Below are positions 12,986 to 29,558 of a DNA stretch of 32,947 bases, piece by piece. A program made the translations under genes and the position numbers. Where the stretch lies: UHGV virus genome UHGV-0038968, one strand, 5' to 3'. The notes beneath the pieces were generated by a model, which was not told where the DNA came from, ran no database searches, and saw only the letters and a list, made by a program, of their open reading frames with translations. Position 1 is the stretch's first letter. Each line of letters begins with the position of its first letter. This stretch comes from a virus.

Positions 12986-13186
12986 TCAGCCCTCTTTACT
13001 GGTCGTGGCTTTTTTCTCTTTTGCCGCTTTACTTCTTTTTGCACTGGTTCCGCGCTCTGCTAACCCGGCCTGAAGTGCAATCTCCTGCACCCGGGCAGGA
13101 AGCGCCCCGTCGTCATACTCACCGGCCCGAATGACCTCAACACGCATACCGTCCGGTGACCATTTCAGATCTTGTTTCAGGATCAT
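12986..13186 (-). CDS. Small hypothetical protein (66 aa) with Lys-rich tail
   Basis: ORF between capsid and connector genes with GGTGAAG upstream of the ATG. Confidence 0.4.
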   Translation of the reverse strand: MILKQDLKWSPDGMRVEVIRAGEYDDGALPARVQEIALQAGLAERGTSAKRSKAAKEKKATTSKEG

Positions 13187-24082: not shown

Positions 24083-24925
24083 TCAATGAACGGTATCGAG
24101 CAGCTTTAACAGCTCAGGGAATCGGGATTCGAAGAAGTGCGGCTGCGTCTCGCGCGGATTTGCGGGACTGGTGATGTTCTTGCCGAACATGCAGCCTTTC
24201 GCTGTCAGCGACCAGAATTTTTTGATGTTGTTAATCGCGGTACGGCTGTATCGTTCGCGTTGTTCAACGATCCCCAGCTTCGCCATCTGGTGATATGCCT
24301 GATTAGCCGTCAGGCGGATACCATACTGTTTCAGCAGTGCACTCAGCGACAGCGTAGGGCGACTTGAGCCATCAGGCGCGTCAGCAGGAGCATCAATGGC
24401 ATAGCGTGGTGCCAGATTCGGTAAGCCAACAGCCTCCTGGAGTTTCTGACAGGCCCCAAGCACAGATGAGTTAGACAGGTTTAACTCCCGGCGCATAAAG
24501 TCCAGCAGAATCACGCCAGCCTGCATCTTGTCAGCAGCCTGTCCGGATAATTTTTCAGGTGCGCTGGTTACCATATCGAAAGTACGGATCACCTTCAGAT
24601 GGAATGACGGGCTGATCCACATTGCATAGGCATACACCAGTTCTTTGCAGACATACGTTCCCCGTTCATTTCCCCCATGAATCACACTCACCGGGTCAAC
24701 ACCCAAATTCTGGGTGTTGGTCAATTCATGAACAAGTTCAACAGTTTGTTGGCTGGAAAGAAACTTTCCTGGCTCCTTGGTTCTGGCATTTGCACCAGAT
24801 GCTACTGCTGCGCGATGCAGATCGTTCAGGCTGTAACGTCCATAAGCATCACGACGAACTTCAATACCATCAATGACCATCAGATTATTCATACTTCGTT
24901 TCTCCTCTTGATCAGGCGGCTGCAC
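24083..24925 (-). CDS. KilA-N domain protein (antirepressor-like)
   Basis: 280 aa; N-terminal KilA-N-like region (MNNLMVIDGIEVRRDAYGRYSLNDLHRAA...SPSFHLKVIRTFD); likely true start at internal Met near 24892. Confidence 0.65.
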   Translation of the reverse strand: MQPPDQEEKRSMNNLMVIDGIEVRRDAYGRYSLNDLHRAAVASGANARTKEPGKFLSSQQTVELVHELTNTQNLGVDPVSVIHGGNERGTYVCKELVYAYAMWISPSFHLKVIRTFDMVTSAPEKLSGQAADKMQAGVILLDFMRRELNLSNSSVLGACQKLQEAVGLPNLAPRYAIDAPADAPDGSSRPTLSLSALLKQYGIRLTANQAYHQMAKLGIVEQRERYSRTAINNIKKFWSLTAKGCMFGKNITSPANPRETQPHFFESRFPELLKLLDTVH

Positions 24926-25301
24926 CCGCCGTTTTCTCGTACTTACTGATAGTGATCTCGACCTTCCCTTCCGGGATAACCGGTCCCCACTCCACCAGCA
25001 TTCTTTTCACCTGACTGTCGTCTTCCCACACACCCGCGTGGGTCAGGGCGTCAAACAGCGCCTTGTTATAGTTGTCCAGATCGCGGATCCGGTTATCCGG
25101 AGGAAACAACACGATCTCCACTGAAGCAGGTGCCGACGTTGGTTTTGGCAGACGACGTAACTGCTCAACTATTGCTGCACACGCCGCGCTCTGGAATTTG
25201 CGCCCCGCCGCGCTTATCAGGCTCTTACCTGCAAACGCCCCTTGGTTGGGGTGTCGCCAGTACGTGTTCACGCTGGGCGGAAAAGGCAGTATTAGCTTCA
25301 T
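24912..25301 (-). CDS. rusA: Holliday junction resolvase RusA
   Basis: 129 aa; N-terminus MKLILPFPPSVNTYWRH characteristic of RusA. Confidence 0.85.
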   Translation of the reverse strand: MKLILPFPPSVNTYWRHPNQGAFAGKSLISAAGRKFQSAACAAIVEQLRRLPKPTSAPASVEIVLFPPDNRIRDLDNYNKALFDALTHAGVWEDDSQVKRMLVEWGPVIPEGKVEITISKYEKTAGAAA

Positions 25302-25624
25302 ACTTTCAGCTCCCTCTCATGTAACCAGTGGGCTGCACGCAGCCTGGCGTTTTCCTCACCGGCAAGCAGTGAGCGGATAATCCCGACCGCCTCGCTGTCG
25401 TCGTCCTTCACCGCGGTATGAAGCGTTATCCCCCGGGCCACGCCACGCTTTATCGTGATGACGCCTTTTTTCTCCAGTGCGCGAAGATGCTCCACCGCTG
25501 CATTCACTGAACGGTATCCCAGCATGGTTGCCACCTCCTGATTGGTTGGCGGAAAGCCACGCTCTTTCTGGTAAGAAATCAGCATATCCAGCACCTGCTG
25601 CTGGCATTGAGTTAACGTCGTCAT
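25298..25624 (-). CDS. LexA-like winged-helix DNA-binding protein lacking the peptidase domain
   Basis: Strong resemblance to the LexA N-terminal domain (QQQVLDMLISYQKERGFPPTNQEVATMLGYRSVNAAVEHLRALEKKGVI); start chosen at MTTLTQ where ATG overlaps the upstream stop (TAATG). Confidence 0.7.
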   Translation of the reverse strand: MTTLTQCQQQVLDMLISYQKERGFPPTNQEVATMLGYRSVNAAVEHLRALEKKGVITIKRGVARGITLHTAVKDDDSEAVGIIRSLLAGEENARLRAAHWLHERELKV

Positions 25625-26118
25625 TACGCCCCCACGTAATTCCCTGACAGATACCACTCATCACTCGATACAGCGCGCTTGCTGCTTTTCCGTAAACACT
25701 GCTCACGACGCGCCAGAAAATTGTTTCGTTCTGGCTGGGAGTGGCTTTCACGGAATGCCACCATCCACACCGTTGCAGCACGACGGTATAAGCCCCTGGA
25801 CTCCAGTTCTTCCGCCTGGCGGGTCAGGCACAAAATCTCCCGCGGGTCGTTAGTGCCGACATAGAAATTGCGCACAGGTCTGGTTTCACGAACTGGTTGC
25901 GGTTCCGCCTCCTGCGCTCTCTCAGTCAGGCGCGGGAAATGTCTGCGTGTATCCCCTTCACAACGGTGAGCCACACGACCACTCTGACGTAACTTGCTTG
26001 CTGACTGAAGAACGCGCTGCCGTGAGTAACCTGCAAAAGCATCCGCAATGTCTCCGGAAGTACACCCCGGATGGGCTTCAATGAATTTCTGAACGTCATT
26101 CAAAAGACTCATGATCAC
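25624..26118 (-). CDS. PerC-like regulatory protein (putative)
   Basis: 164 aa; C-terminal LESRGLYRRAATVW matches the PerC/Pch-type motif as I recall it; N-terminal half looks winged-helix-like. Confidence 0.45.
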   Translation of the reverse strand: MIMSLLNDVQKFIEAHPGCTSGDIADAFAGYSRQRVLQSASKLRQSGRVAHRCEGDTRRHFPRLTERAQEAEPQPVRETRPVRNFYVGTNDPREILCLTRQAEELESRGLYRRAATVWMVAFRESHSQPERNNFLARREQCLRKSSKRAVSSDEWYLSGNYVGA

Positions 26119-26933
26119 CCCCTGAATCCTGCCGGGATCTGGCTGTAGTCCACGTTGTCGTAACTGGCTTTGAAGTACGGGTCCTCGCGTCTGGCTGCAG
26201 ATACCGCAGGAACTTCCCAGGATTCTTCGAAATGACGATCCGGACCAAAGAACGTGACAGCCTGTTTCACAAATTGTGTGCCGCTGTTACCCATCGCAGA
26301 TACCCAGCCCGCGTAGCGTTTCACACCTTCCAGCATGGTTTCGGGTTTTACCCCCTCATTCAAACGAGCTTTCCAGGCTTTGAGGGCTGCAGATTTTGAA
26401 TTGCCACCAGCACGTTTGGGGTATGCCAGCCATGCCTGCTCAAACTCCGGAGAGTATTCCGGTCGGTTTGAACGAACTCGCACGGACTCATCAGCAGATG
26501 CACCAACAGCTATTGGTTCATTGACTGGTTCTTTGACTGGTTCAAAAGAGTGACTGGTTCTGGGTGAATCTCCTGCACCACCCCCTGGTGCAACTCCTGC
26601 ACTACCTGGTGAATTTGCTGCACTAGATAGTGAATTATTTGCACTACCCCCTAGTGAATCTCCTGCACCATCAAGATGAAGGAGATAGATATTACTTGAG
26701 TTACCTTTTTCACCTTTCCGGGTGACTTTTTTTACCAGCCCGGAATCACAAAGGGCCGCAATATGATTCATCACAGAACGTTTGCTAATCTCGCACTGGT
26801 CAGCAATATGCTGGTAGCTGGGCCAGCACTCACCCTGATCGCTGGCATTATCAGCCAGCTTGATCAGAACCAGTTTTCGCAATGGATTACCCACTCGAAT
26901 TTTCATCGCTTTAACCATCAGCTCCATACTCAT
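26115..26933 (-). CDS. Replication initiator / replisome organiser (lambda O-like, N-terminal HTH)
   Basis: 272 aa; N-terminal HTH (LRKLVLIKLADNASDQGECWPSYQHIADQCEISKRSVMNHIAALCDSGLV); low-complexity central region encoded by iteron-like repeats. Confidence 0.7.
   Translation of the reverse strand: MSMELMVKAMKIRVGNPLRKLVLIKLADNASDQGECWPSYQHIADQCEISKRSVMNHIAALCDSGLVKKVTRKGEKGNSSNIYLLHLDGAGDSLGGSANNSLSSAANSPGSAGVAPGGGAGDSPRTSHSFEPVKEPVNEPIAVGASADESVRVRSNRPEYSPEFEQAWLAYPKRAGGNSKSAALKAWKARLNEGVKPETMLEGVKRYAGWVSAMGNSGTQFVKQAVTFFGPDRHFEESWEVPAVSAARREDPYFKASYDNVDYSQIPAGFRG
26564..26671. repeat. Five ~18-bp direct repeats (iteron-like) inside the replication initiator gene
   Basis: GGTGAATCTCCTGCACCA, GGTGCAACTCCTGCACTA, GGTGAATTTGCTGCACTA, AGTGAATTATTTGCACTA, AGTGAATCTCCTGCACCA at 26564, 26588, 26609, 26630, 26654 (spacing 24/21/21/24). 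Confidence 0.6.
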
Positions 26934-27166
26934 GCTGCACCTCCGAGATGCTTCATGTTTTTTCCGGAGCGAAAGGCAATAAGCGGCATACTGACGCGGT
27001 AATTGCGGCCCAGCGGTTCACAAATCACCTTCTGACATTCACAGTCAACCAGGCTGACACGTAGAACATGCCCTGCTGGCGTGGTGTACCACTGCCCAAC
27101 TGTGGGTGTTGATATTTTTTTACGCTGAAATAAACGGTAAATGTTGAGGAGCAACGGATTAAGCAT
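26930..27166 (-). CDS. Small hypothetical protein (78 aa, Cys-containing)
   Basis: Overlaps both neighbours by a few nt in an operon-like arrangement; no family recognised. Confidence 0.4.
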   Translation of the reverse strand: MLNPLLLNIYRLFQRKKISTPTVGQWYTTPAGHVLRVSLVDCECQKVICEPLGRNYRVSMPLIAFRSGKNMKHLGGAA

Positions 27167-27995
27167 GACGATGCCCTCCGCTGATATTCAGGAGACGGTG
27201 AATATGAAAATTAGCCTTATCCGCCAGACGAATACGTTCAGCTTGCAAGTTAAGAAGGGTTTCTACCAGAACCTGATGTGCCTGCGGATCCGAAAGAGTT
27301 ACCTTGCGCAGAGCACGTAGTGCAGTTGTTACATAACTGAGTTTATGTAAGTCTTCATCATTCAGACGAGTGAGGGCTGGGACAGTAGCCATGATGGCAG
27401 CCTCCTTGATCGGTGAAATACTTCCACCACCGGAAACGCCAATTTCGCTGGTGGTGAACTGAACGGGGTTGGCGTAACCGGTGATCAAGGAAACCGGCGC
27501 ATCTTTCGATGCCCCCGCCCAGCCCACCATAACTTTGATGTGAGCAAATGCGGACGATAAAAAAGACGCTGGCGCGTCATATATCGCCTTGATCAATTCC
27601 AGGACGCCAATCCCGGCACCCGCTTTATAAGGTGCCTGAACAGTGTAACGTCCCGGAATGGCAGAATCAATGTGCTGGTGGTCCTTCACACTCAACAAAA
27701 TCACGCCTGAATTTCCACAAAGGGCTAAAGCACTCATGCGGGTAGTCTTTGCGAAGATAGATAACGCGCTGTGTTTCTGACTCCCAACGAATAACATGAA
27801 CATAAAGTCCTCTTCCGTCACGAAACCAGCGGTTAAGTTCCTGCACAACTCGCCCCCCACAGTCAGGTAAAGTTCTCTGTGGTTACTTACAGCCAGGAGA
27901 TTTGGTAATCTGCATTCATGCCGTAACAACACGTGTTCAGCGACGCTGACCACCAGCTGTTGCGACAAACGGTTATTTGCCGTTAAACTGTTCAT
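27159..27995 (-). CDS. Hypothetical protein (278 aa), unknown function, early-right operon
   Basis: Long ORF tightly packed between the CII/YdaT-like gene and the small ORF; no motif recognised (no Walker A). Confidence 0.55.
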   Translation of the reverse strand: MNSLTANNRLSQQLVVSVAEHVLLRHECRLPNLLAVSNHRELYLTVGGELCRNLTAGFVTEEDFMFMLFVGSQKHSALSIFAKTTRMSALALCGNSGVILLSVKDHQHIDSAIPGRYTVQAPYKAGAGIGVLELIKAIYDAPASFLSSAFAHIKVMVGWAGASKDAPVSLITGYANPVQFTTSEIGVSGGGSISPIKEAAIMATVPALTRLNDEDLHKLSYVTTALRALRKVTLSDPQAHQVLVETLLNLQAERIRLADKANFHIHRLLNISGGHRHA

Positions 27996-28561
27996 GCGTT
28001 AGTTTCTCCACAACCAGAAGCAATCGACGCCACGACGCCCGGAGCTGCACACTCGCGGGCGTCATTACTTTCTGAAATGCAAAAGATTTTGTAGACCAGT
28101 GCTGCATGCTCCTGCAGCTTCGAAATTGAGAGATACAGCTCGTCGTTAATTGCTGTCTTCTCATGCGGTTCCACTACACCGTCTTCGATTGCTGAACGAA
28201 TCTGTTTTGAATAACTGCCGATCTGTTCAATGACTTCCAGCAGACGCTGGTTAATATCGGCGTTGTCCACATCCTCGACGTCAGGAAGAGACACAAAGAC
28301 GCCATTTGCAGACTGCGCCACAGCGTCAGCAATGAAGTGAGTTCCACCAGCACGTTGCAAAATCATTGCCCATCCCAGCGGGAAAATCTGATCGCCATCG
28401 GCACGAAGGCGGTTAAATAATGCGTTCTCTGTTACATCCAGCCAGTCAGCTGCTTCAGCGTAACCACCCGGCAACTTTGCGATAGTTTTTCTGACAGCTT
28501 TCACGTACCACTCAGGCTGTTTTTCTACTTTCCAGTGATGCTTACCCACGGTTAGCCTCAT
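27992..28561 (-). CDS. CII-like / YdaT-like early regulatory protein (putative)
   Basis: 189 aa; second gene after cro on the rightward operon, the position CII-type regulators occupy; assignment tentative. Confidence 0.4.
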   Translation of the reverse strand: MRLTVGKHHWKVEKQPEWYVKAVRKTIAKLPGGYAEAADWLDVTENALFNRLRADGDQIFPLGWAMILQRAGGTHFIADAVAQSANGVFVSLPDVEDVDNADINQRLLEVIEQIGSYSKQIRSAIEDGVVEPHEKTAINDELYLSISKLQEHAALVYKIFCISESNDARECAAPGVVASIASGCGETNA

Positions 28562-28883: not shown

Positions 28884-29558
28884 ATGAAAACAATCCATGA
28901 CATCCGGCGGTCTAACGCCAGAAAATTGAGAGATGGTGTTGGCGGGAATTCTTCCTTTGCCACTATGATTGATCGCGAGCCAACCCAGACCAGCAGGTTT
29001 ATGGGAGATGGTGCTACTAAAAATATCGGTGACAGCATGGCACGACACATCGAAAAATGTTTCGACCTGCCTGTCGGATGGCTCGATCAAGAACACCAGA
29101 CAACGAACATCACAAAAAAACCTGATGTTTCAATCACTAATAAACAAATCACATTAGTCCCTGTCATATCATGGGTACAGGCCGGAGCATGGAAAGAAGT
29201 TGGATATTCTGAGGTTGATTTGAGCACAGCAGAAACGTATCCCTGCCCTGTACCCTGTGGGGAAATGACTTATATCTTGCGGGTGATAGGTGATTCAATG
29301 ATTGATGAGTACCGCCCGGGAGACATGATTTTTGTCGATCCTGAAGTACCTGCCTGCCACGGTGACGACGTTATTGCATTGATGCACGATACAGGCGAAA
29401 CCACCTTCAAAAGGTTGATAGAAGATGGGACACAGCGTTATCTCAAAGCGTTAAACCCAAACTGGCCTGAGCCTTACATTAAGATCAACGGTAATTGCTC
29501 TATAATTGGTACAGTGATTTTCTCAGGAAAACCAAGAAGATACAAAATCAAAGCCTAA
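28884..29558 (+). CDS. CI-type repressor with C-terminal LexA-like S24 autopeptidase domain
   Basis: 224 aa; N-terminal HTH region, C-terminal VIGDSM (Ser) and TTFKRL (Lys) motifs of S24 peptidases; divergent from cro. Confidence 0.85.
   Translation: MKTIHDIRRSNARKLRDGVGGNSSFATMIDREPTQTSRFMGDGATKNIGDSMARHIEKCFDLPVGWLDQEHQTTNITKKPDVSITNKQITLVPVISWVQAGAWKEVGYSEVDLSTAETYPCPVPCGEMTYILRVIGDSMIDEYRPGDMIFVDPEVPACHGDDVIALMHDTGETTFKRLIEDGTQRYLKALNPNWPEPYIKINGNCSIIGTVIFSGKPRRYKIKA

Follow-up and report, generated by a model that had tools for sequence, protein, structure and literature searches.

That an origin of replication can consist of iterons lying inside the initiator gene is textbook knowledge for phage lambda. 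Iteron plasmid origins, such as RK2 oriV with its 13-mers, and oriC with its 13-mers and DnaA-trios share a second layout, in which an array of initiator sites is followed by direct repeats of ~12–13 nt where the DNA opens and one of its strands is contacted by the initiator. Among the lambdoid phages, lambda gene O and gene 18 of P22 and of phage L each contain their own iterons (PMC8022706), and in lambda two iterons with the adjacent region suffice for unwinding, with O binding the single-stranded DNA there (PMC7466680). The present analysis concerns a similar arrangement in the virus genome UHGV-0038968, whose whole analyzed stretch of 32,947 nucleotides is referred to below as the window: five direct repeats in the middle of a replication initiator gene, with a conserved 38-bp element directly after the last of them.

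The lambda origin, comprised of four iterons and an AT-rich region in gene O (six iterons in the variants of Shiga toxin (Stx) phages), likewise lies mid-gene, in the part encoding the linker between a DNA-binding N-terminal domain and a C-terminal recruitment domain. The locus in the window shares with lambda and the Stx variants repeats of ~18–19 bp with dyad symmetry, a variable copy number, type-specific iterons and a conserved adjacent segment (PMC7466680, PMC8022706). It differs from lambda in that the initiator matches HTH_36 only, the adjoining segment is made of GAACCAGTCA repeats and is not AT-rich, there is no P-type loader gene, and the iterons number five and have different sequences. 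Gene 18 of P22 and L is again a lambdoid initiator gene with its own distinct repeats, interpreted as an origin (PMC8022706); both of these phages have a DnaB-type helicase gene (gene 12) beside the initiator, whereas the window has none, and P22 was not among the tblastn matches to the N-terminal domain at E ≤ 1e-8.

The gene itself is that of the Eru6 replication type of Stx phages, for which the reference is Stx2a_WGPS2 (AP012537). The reference phage and its HTH_36 protein have been described at the level of gene content only (PMC8951638); the words "iteron" and "repeats" are absent from that paper, no origin is proposed in it, and the Eru papers are silent on repeats. The DopC or O-like proteins (Brezellec et al. 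2017) likewise combine an HTH_36 N terminus with a C-terminal feature shared with DnaT (PMC5509034). DopC differs in being a domesticated chromosomal gene reported without iterons (PMC5509034), and the DnaT likeness of the initiator in the window is limited to its last nine residues. No description of the origin of this family was found in the literature searched, although a prior mention is possible, and a text search for GAACCAGTCA and TGACTGGTTC returned unrelated primer sequences only. Since no description was found and the initiator lies outside the Pfam lambda-O family, the locus is counted here as an uncharacterised lambda-type origin.

The five repeats are considered, with good confidence, to be iterons of the phage origin that the initiator would bind, located inside the linker-coding middle of its own gene. 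The initial annotation had named this segment as probably the phage origin; the computational evidence all agrees, and the origin is very probably of the lambda type and internal to the initiator gene, with binding, unwinding, helicase loading and origin activity being what we infer from that evidence. Two computational observations go beyond what was expected, namely a near-invariant, frame-independent 38-bp element and a clean code relating the recognition helix to the iteron.

The Repeat Array within the Initiator Gene

The window was scanned with the degenerate 18-mer RGTGMAW-N4-TGCACYA, using 100 dinucleotide shuffles as the null. Five exact matches were found on the + strand, starting at 26563, 26587, 26608, 26629, and 26653, with start-to-start spacings of 24, 21, 21, and 24 bp. 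This bears out the five direct repeats of ~18 bp at 21–24-bp spacing that had been noticed at the outset, except that the spacer of five bases given for them was a miscount: the N5 pattern matches none of the five repeats and N4 is correct. When up to two mismatches were allowed on both strands, 11 18-mers matched, nine of them inside the array, since every repeat is an imperfect palindrome in its own right; none of the 100 shuffles reached 11 (mean 2.9). The half-sites of the palindrome are GTGCA and TKCAC, and in gene orientation the unit reads T(A/G)GTGCA-NNNN-(A/T)T(T/G)CAC(C/T), with the half-sites kept and the central bases variable among the five copies. Tandem Repeats Finder places the array at 26564–26668 (period 21, 4.7 copies), a separate repeat finder gives the same array, and Tandem Repeats Finder detected no other comparable array in the 33-kb window. 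The positions of all features are collected in Table 1.

Two isolated iteron-like sequences were also seen, both within chance expectation. The first, GGTGAAATACTTCCACCA (27412–27429, +), has one mismatch and lies in the Ash-family gene ~750 bp upstream of the array; the second, AGTGCAATCTCCTGCACCC (13074–13092, +), has its half-sites one base further apart.

Table 1. Features of the initiator gene and its putative internal origin, with positions in the window
Feature	Position	Strand	Remarks
Replication initiator gene (272 residues, 819 bp)	26115–26933	−	Winged helix, disordered linker, C-terminal helical domain, short tail
N-terminal winged-helix DNA-binding domain (residues 1–88)	26670–26933	−	AlphaFold2 model
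Predicted recognition helix (residues 51–63), KRSVMNHIAALCD	26745–26783	−	Model helix and co-variation with iteron class
Moderately AT-rich flank	26671–26740	−	Promoter-proximal of the iterons; encodes the wing, KGNSSNIYLLHLD; second unwinding candidate
Iteron 1 (gene order)	26653–26670	−	TGGTGCAGGAGATTCACT
Iteron 2	26629–26646	−	TAGTGCAAATAATTCACT
Iteron 3	26608–26625	−	TAGTGCAGCAAATTCACC
Iteron 4	26587–26604	−	TAGTGCAGGAGTTGCACC
Iteron 5	26563–26580	−	TGGTGCAGGAGATTCACC; abuts the conserved 38-bp element
Conserved 38-bp element, CCCAGAACCAGTCACTCTTTTGAACCAGTCAAAGAACC	26527–26564	−	Encodes P-RTSHSFEPVKEP; directly after the last iteron
GAACCAGTCA direct repeats	26551–26560, 26534–26543, 26522–26531; degenerate 26510–26519	−	Spacing 17, 12, 12
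C-terminal helical domain (residues 162–229)	26247–26450	−	One of at least 10 interchangeable C-modules
C-terminal peptide SQIPAGFRG	26118–26144	−	Matches the DnaT C terminus

The Initiator and Its Linker

The open reading frame (ORF) that contains the repeats had been called a replication initiator, and its product indeed matches phrog_270, "replication initiation protein" (E = 1.1e-88). Residues 17–67 match Pfam HTH_36 (PF13730) with 43.5 bits (E = 2.8e-11, cut-off 25); in the same Pfam scan DnaD_N reached 23.2 bits, under its cut-off of 27, and there was no match to Phage_rep_O. The initial annotation had described an O-like gene with a lambda-like internal origin, and of this the arrangement is supported, whereas Pfam membership of the lambda-O family is not, HTH_36 being found instead.

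An AlphaFold2 model built from 20 homologues comprises helices at residues 3–11, 17–28, 40–47, and 51–63 and a β-hairpin wing at residues 67–85, with block-mean predicted local distance difference test (pLDDT) values of 62–87 over residues 1–90. The two folded domains, residues 1–88 and 162–229, are separated by a stretch with pLDDT below 50 (residues 91–159), and the tail is likewise predicted to be disordered. The iterons encode residues 89–124, a low-complexity peptide of the GAGDS/GSANNS type, and the TGACTGGTTC region encodes residues 124–141, so that both lie in the linker and the iterons and the element together account for residues 89–141. The earlier statement that the repeats encode a low-complexity linker thus agrees with the predicted disorder of this segment. 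A Foldseek search of the PDB with the N-terminal domain retrieved generic winged-helix proteins only and with the C-terminal domain nothing; at the sequence level, no relative was found in the PDB for either the complete protein or its C-terminal half, and an NCBIfam search gave nothing useful.

Repeats in Relatives

Four sets of relatives were compared: annotated phages of Pseudomonas, Vibrio, Stenotrophomonas, Salmonella, and E. coli; 80 near-identical viral contigs, used for copy number; 80 genome loci from ~76 species of Gammaproteobacteria, with 68–88% identity in the N-terminal domain; and 120 viral contigs found through the conserved element. The genome loci were used for diversity because a first scan of viral contigs gave near-identical copies only. 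In all 74 relatives that could be scanned the repeats lie between the end of the wing (…GNSSN.Y.L.L) and the conserved element, as arrays of typically 3–7 imperfect palindromes of 16–18 nt at 20–25-bp spacing, the last interval being almost always 23–25 bp; over all relatives examined the number ranges from one to nine. Conservation of repeat spacing in relatives, a check proposed with the initial annotation, is therefore found together with conservation of position and architecture. The number of iterons is five in 75 of the 80 near-identical contigs and otherwise four, six, or seven; phage cdtI has eight, and protein variants have two, seven, eight, and nine. Among the natural variants in near-identical E. 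coli relatives, P0029 has only two iterons and 250 residues and is found on 64 contigs.

The peptides encoded by the arrays are unrelated to one another (GAGDSL, GGAGAA, MPPKSIAP, PSDKMSP, and GMAGNGT), yet all come from palindromic 16–18-mers at the same spacing. Moreover, individual Pseudomonas genes contain copies of one iteron in two reading frames, translated as GVVQQIHQ and as GSAGAAP, and one copy is inverted. These observations bear on the possibility that replication slippage, by expanding a low-complexity Gly/Ser/Ala linker, produced the repeats as a mere side effect, with no function at the DNA level. The GAGDS/GSANNS-type composition of a region predicted to be disordered, together with the polymorphic copy number, would fit such an origin; however, it is the half-sites that are kept and the central bases that differ, relatives use one DNA repeat in different frames and once in inverted orientation, unrelated peptides arise from the one palindromic design, and the repeat sequence follows the recognition helix and not the composition of the linker. 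This explanation is accordingly disfavored and regarded as very improbable. Copy number that changes by whole units, frame switching and inversion, and co-variation with the helix together exclude a purely peptide-level origin of the repeats, for which binding by the initiator would be the natural reading.

The Predicted Recognition Helix and the Iteron Class

Across 165 distinct combinations of helix and array, compared side by side, the class of the predicted recognition helix maps one-to-one onto the class of the iteron. Helices of the form xRS(V/A)xxH go with GTGMA..TKCAC (111/112), x(S/T)(A/T)VRxH with TGYCR..GGCAC (26/26), DRSTVR(K/R)H with GTAGGCCCAGAAAGCAC (10/10), and xSTVKxH with GGGGCAGGAGCTGCCCC (7/7). 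The pairing of ..MRH.. with GTGAY..RTCAC is found in two separate helix classes, one from Erwinia/Izhakiella prophages and one from Vibrio/Aliivibrio phages, so that arginine at the position of Asn56 goes with GTGAY/RTCAC in both. The same pairing is seen in the distant phage mEp044 (helix KRTAMRA), which lies outside the 165.

In terms of hosts and phages, GGGGCAGGAGCTGCCC is the iteron of Min27-type Stx phages, AGTGAY..RTCACC that of Vibrio D67, Aliivibrio, Erwinia, and mEp044, and ATGCC..GGCAC that of Stenotrophomonas, Shewanella, and Klebsiella-type phages; GTAGGCCCAGAAAGCAC belongs to one Pseudomonas group, and GTGTAA..TTACAC was found on one contig. The family offers a natural data set for how a winged helix reads DNA, for example Asn56 with GTGCA versus Arg56 with GTGAC.

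The Conserved 38-bp Element

Exact copies of TGACTGGTTC start at 26522, 26534, and 26551, with a degenerate fourth copy, CTATTGGTTC, at 26510–26519; the three copies had been recognized in the initial annotation, at coordinates (26523, 26536, and 26552) that are off by one to two bases. The three copies belong to the 38-bp element, which follows the last iteron directly. A counterpart of its sequence, CCCAGAAYCAGTCACTCTYYTGAAYCAGTCAATGAACC, aligns in each of the 80 genome loci (~76 species), with strong conservation in most and weak or partial conservation in a few, and as DNA the element is near-invariant in 70 non-redundant relatives from Pseudomonas, Vibrio, Shewanella, Aeromonas, and Enterobacterales. 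In these 70 representatives the major-allele frequency at third codon positions is 0.91 in the element, the same as at its first and second positions, versus 0.54 in the codons of conserved residues of the N-terminal domain, whose synonymous sites are saturated. The substitutions that the element does carry are mostly non-synonymous (T/I, P/S, F/S/L/P, and H/N).

The element is also not tied to one reading frame. In six of the 70 representatives (Shewanella and Parashewanella) its first part is read in another frame (…HPEPVTLEPVNES…), and a 2-nt deletion between two copies of GAACCAGTCA brings back the usual one. Even where the standard frame is used, the 17-nt distance between copies means that a single gene translates this 10-mer first as RTSH and then as EPV. 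Taken together, the third-position conservation, the non-synonymous changes, and the frame switches indicate a constraint that acts on the nucleic acid.

In viral contigs the element occurs only downstream of this N-terminal domain, in 112 of the 112 cases with enough upstream sequence. Reduced forms are present in mEp044 (TAACCAGTCA-N4-TAACCAGTAA) and in Pseudomonas phage LESphi3 (CAGAACC-N6-GAACC-N7-GAACC-N6-GAACC), and such distant members keep a GAACC periodicity of ~12 nt while the encoded peptide differs. Two natural variants of the initiator are altered at this point: P0018, from a cluster of 311 sequences, has an additional 12-nt GAACCAGTCAAA unit (EPVKEPVKEPVNEP), and P0037, a rare form of 247 residues on three contigs, is deleted for the last iteron and the entire element.

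A Modular Joint at the End of the Element

Similarity to other phages breaks at the 3′ end of the element. Matches confined to the N-terminal module stop at ~26518–26527, and those confined to the C-terminal module start at 26509. Natural chimeras have the corresponding structure, with an N-terminal domain and iterons of the Min27 type or of the Stenotrophomonas type joined to the C-terminal sequence of the window right after …SHSFEPVKEPVNEP, and in the 80 loci at least 10 unrelated C-terminal modules follow the element. These sequence comparisons show wing, iterons, and element moving between phages as a single module, which would set the specificity of the origin.

A converse case is the initiator of the Stx1a phage Stx1_14744 (gene 1393–2301), which has an unrelated N-terminal domain, the C-terminal domain of the window, and its own GGGAAAC-type repeats. 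These are followed at the junction by AT-rich ACAGAGAWTAC repeats (peptide TENTTEITSENTTE). Short repeats of ~12 nt after the iterons may be a general feature of several initiator families.

The conservation of the 38-bp element, as distinct from that of the iterons, could stem from something other than an origin function, namely from the peptide motif RTSHSFEPVxEP, from a signal at the mRNA level, or from use of the element as a patch of homology that allows modules to recombine. In favor of this, most members do encode a recognizable peptide motif there, its 3′ end is precisely where similarity breaks and where the natural chimeras are joined, and the element is not AT-rich. A peptide motif is difficult to reconcile with third positions as conserved as the first and second, with substitutions that mostly change the amino acid, with six lineages that read part of the element in another frame, with GAACCAGTCA serving as both RTSH and EPV in one gene, and with distant members that retain the ~12-nt GAACC periodicity under a different peptide. 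There is no significant single-strand structure in the region of the element to point to an mRNA signal, and selection for the potential to recombine would by itself be weak, as phages of Pseudomonas, Vibrio, and E. coli rarely meet. The alternative as a whole is thus judged unlikely, although it retains appreciable weight.

That the element is a functional component of the origin is given close to an even chance. A wider proposal is put forward more tentatively, and we rate it slightly below even: the element would be a hitherto undescribed, obligatory DNA component of the origins of a large Gammaproteobacterial family of winged-helix initiators, acting as the site of strand opening and helicase loading, held constant while iterons and helices diversified into at least seven classes, and, by this constancy, serving as the crossover point at which phages exchange modules for origin specificity and for helicase recruitment. 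It would possibly be contacted as single-stranded DNA by the invariant part of the initiator.

Candidate Sites of Unwinding

The GAACCAGTCA repeat region (26510–26560) is a candidate for the unwinding or helicase-loading region and is also where the modules join. A second candidate lies on the other side of the array. There, 60-nt windows at 26660–26739 have a GC content of 38–40%, versus ~50% nearby, and the segment encodes a conserved part of the protein rich in Asn, Ser, and Tyr. A moderately AT-rich stretch had been reported initially; it is real, though weak, and it is promoter-proximal, preceding the repeats when the gene is read 5′ to 3′, which is the side opposite to that in lambda.

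Duplex-stability profiles of 79 loci, anchored on the element, show two modest minima that bracket the array. In 100% of these loci the stability of the element falls below the locus mean, and in about half the least stable 40-bp window lies in it; for the wing-coding flank the stability falls below the mean in ~90%, and at the locus in the window it is this flank that has the minimum, near 26692. Of the two, the element is favored for opening because it is conserved as DNA and lies on the side where lambda unwinds. The likeness to the repeats of RK2 and oriC is a lead only, as those are AT-rich and intergenic and are accompanied by DnaA boxes, whereas the repeats in the window are ~42% GC, coding, and without a DnaA box. 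The frame-independent element is nonetheless a concrete candidate for a site of strand opening and module exchange in origins that have no AT-rich region. An explanation through a hairpin or RNA structure was also considered and dropped, because folding of either strand was not above that of shuffled sequences.

Proposed Mechanism of Initiation

In the proposed mechanism, dimers of the N-terminal winged-helix domain would bind the five imperfect palindromes (half-sites GTGCA and TKCAC), about two helical turns apart, and the bound dimers would build a nucleoprotein complex resembling the lambda "O-some". The complex would destabilize a flank, most likely the GAACCAGTCA-repeat element downstream of the last iteron or, alternatively, the weakly AT-rich flank upstream, and the variable C-terminal module would then bring in the host helicase. 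Recruitment would probably proceed through the C-terminal domain and the DnaT-like tail, since no helicase or loader gene follows the initiator.

Several points weigh against an origin at this locus or against parts of the mechanism. There is no strongly AT-rich unwinding element, the 38-bp element having ~42% GC and the upstream flank 38–40%, and the dips in stability are modest. No DnaA box (TTATNCACA, ≤1 mismatch) is present at 24894–28003, ~1 kb around the gene, and counts over the whole window equal chance. Folding of 26500–26700 is no better than that of shuffles for either strand (z −1.3 and −1.2). The co-variation of helix and iteron takes no account of phylogeny, although the pairing of the arginine helix with GTGAY recurs in lineages that are separate. 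Any partner of the DnaT-like tail is hypothetical, and no experiment on this initiator family was found in the literature searched. Finally, repeats that are a protein's own sites within the gene for that DNA-binding protein could serve autoregulation or the control of copy number.

The last point amounts to an alternative in which the repeats do bind the initiator and serve autoregulation, copy-number control by handcuffing, or incompatibility, while opening and loading take place elsewhere in the prophage. Plasmid iterons have such dual roles, acting in initiation as well as in autoregulation, copy-number control, or incompatibility. In the window no convincing AT-rich unwinding element adjoins the array, and other origins were sought only through DnaA boxes and tandem repeats, a search that found nothing comparable. 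Against it, the array occupies the place of the origins in lambda, P22, and L (PMC8022706), its link to a flanking element that is conserved and found only with this initiator family is strict, and it has no counterpart among the repeats of the window. A purely regulatory role is thus considered improbable, and the array continues to be read as the iterons of a lambda-type origin.

Possible Helicase Recruitment and Genomic Context

The initiator belongs to a lambdoid early-right operon, in which it is preceded, in this order, by an S24-type cI repressor (28884–29558, +), a cro-like ORF, a CII/CP76-like gene, an Ash-family gene, and a 78-residue ORF. The conserved 78-residue ORF (phrog_1153; 26930–27166, −) overlaps the start of the initiator gene. 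On the other side, a PerC-like regulator (Pfam PerC, phrog_1324; 25624–26118, −) overlaps the initiator stop by 4 nt with its own start, and a gene with a LexA-type DNA-binding domain, RusA, and a KilA-N gene lie further downstream. No helicase, primase, or loader gene follows the initiator in the window. A promoter and terminator scan in and beside the putative origin gave nothing above shuffled expectation.

In relatives, the next gene encodes a DnaC-like AAA+ loader, a homologue of lambda P, a DnaB-type helicase, or nothing recognizable, and the P-like, DnaC-like, and DnaB-like neighbors occur only in relatives with other C-modules. These replication-type neighbors support a role of the family in the initiation of replication.

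The C terminus of the initiator, SQIPAGFRG, is identical in eight of nine residues to that of E. coli DnaT, SQIPPGFRG, with both peptides located at the very end of the protein. BLASTP against DnaT aligns only these last nine residues and gives no homology in the folded domains, and a tblastn search of plasmids with the C-terminal tail was uninformative. The tail may act as a short mimic that engages a replication partner of the host. The match suggests, as a hypothesis, that this solo initiator plugs into the host primosome pathway. Relatives with the same C-terminal domain have other tails, which end in an aromatic residue (…DYGQTDCNW and …DDFGESGENLNF).

Distribution

The initiator gene is 98–99.5% identical to genes in phages 2H10, SfV (orf39), mEp460, and cdtI (gp46) and in many Stx2c phages, and the initiator of Stx2a_WGPS2 has 98.3% nucleotide identity over 819/819 bp. 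Among 5,426 complete E. coli genomes, full-length copies (≥80% matched) are present in 897 and partial or full matches in 2,718; initiator fragments are therefore very common in defective prophages. About one in six E. coli genomes thus has an initiator gene with this internal, putative origin, as do phages for the Stx2a, Stx2c, and Cdt toxins and the serotype-converting phage SfV. Replication drives toxin gene dosage after induction, and with the origin and its binding code in hand the replication of toxin phages could be studied and manipulated.

In chromosomal copies from Pseudomonas bharatica, Erwinia tracheiphila, and Ca. Phlomobacter, frameshifts or stops cut the reading frame short inside or ahead of the iterons and element, one of them ending …HPEPVTLLNQ*, with the DNA element still intact in all three. 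Such copies probably belong to decaying prophages. In SfV and cdtI the initiator is closely followed by a gene for a Dam methylase or a PAPS-reductase-like protein, which is the very next gene in cdtI and comes after orf40 in SfV. In complete E. coli genomes the PerC-like gene on the flank bears the annotation yfdN, which is also a gene name in the K-12 prophage remnant CPS-53.

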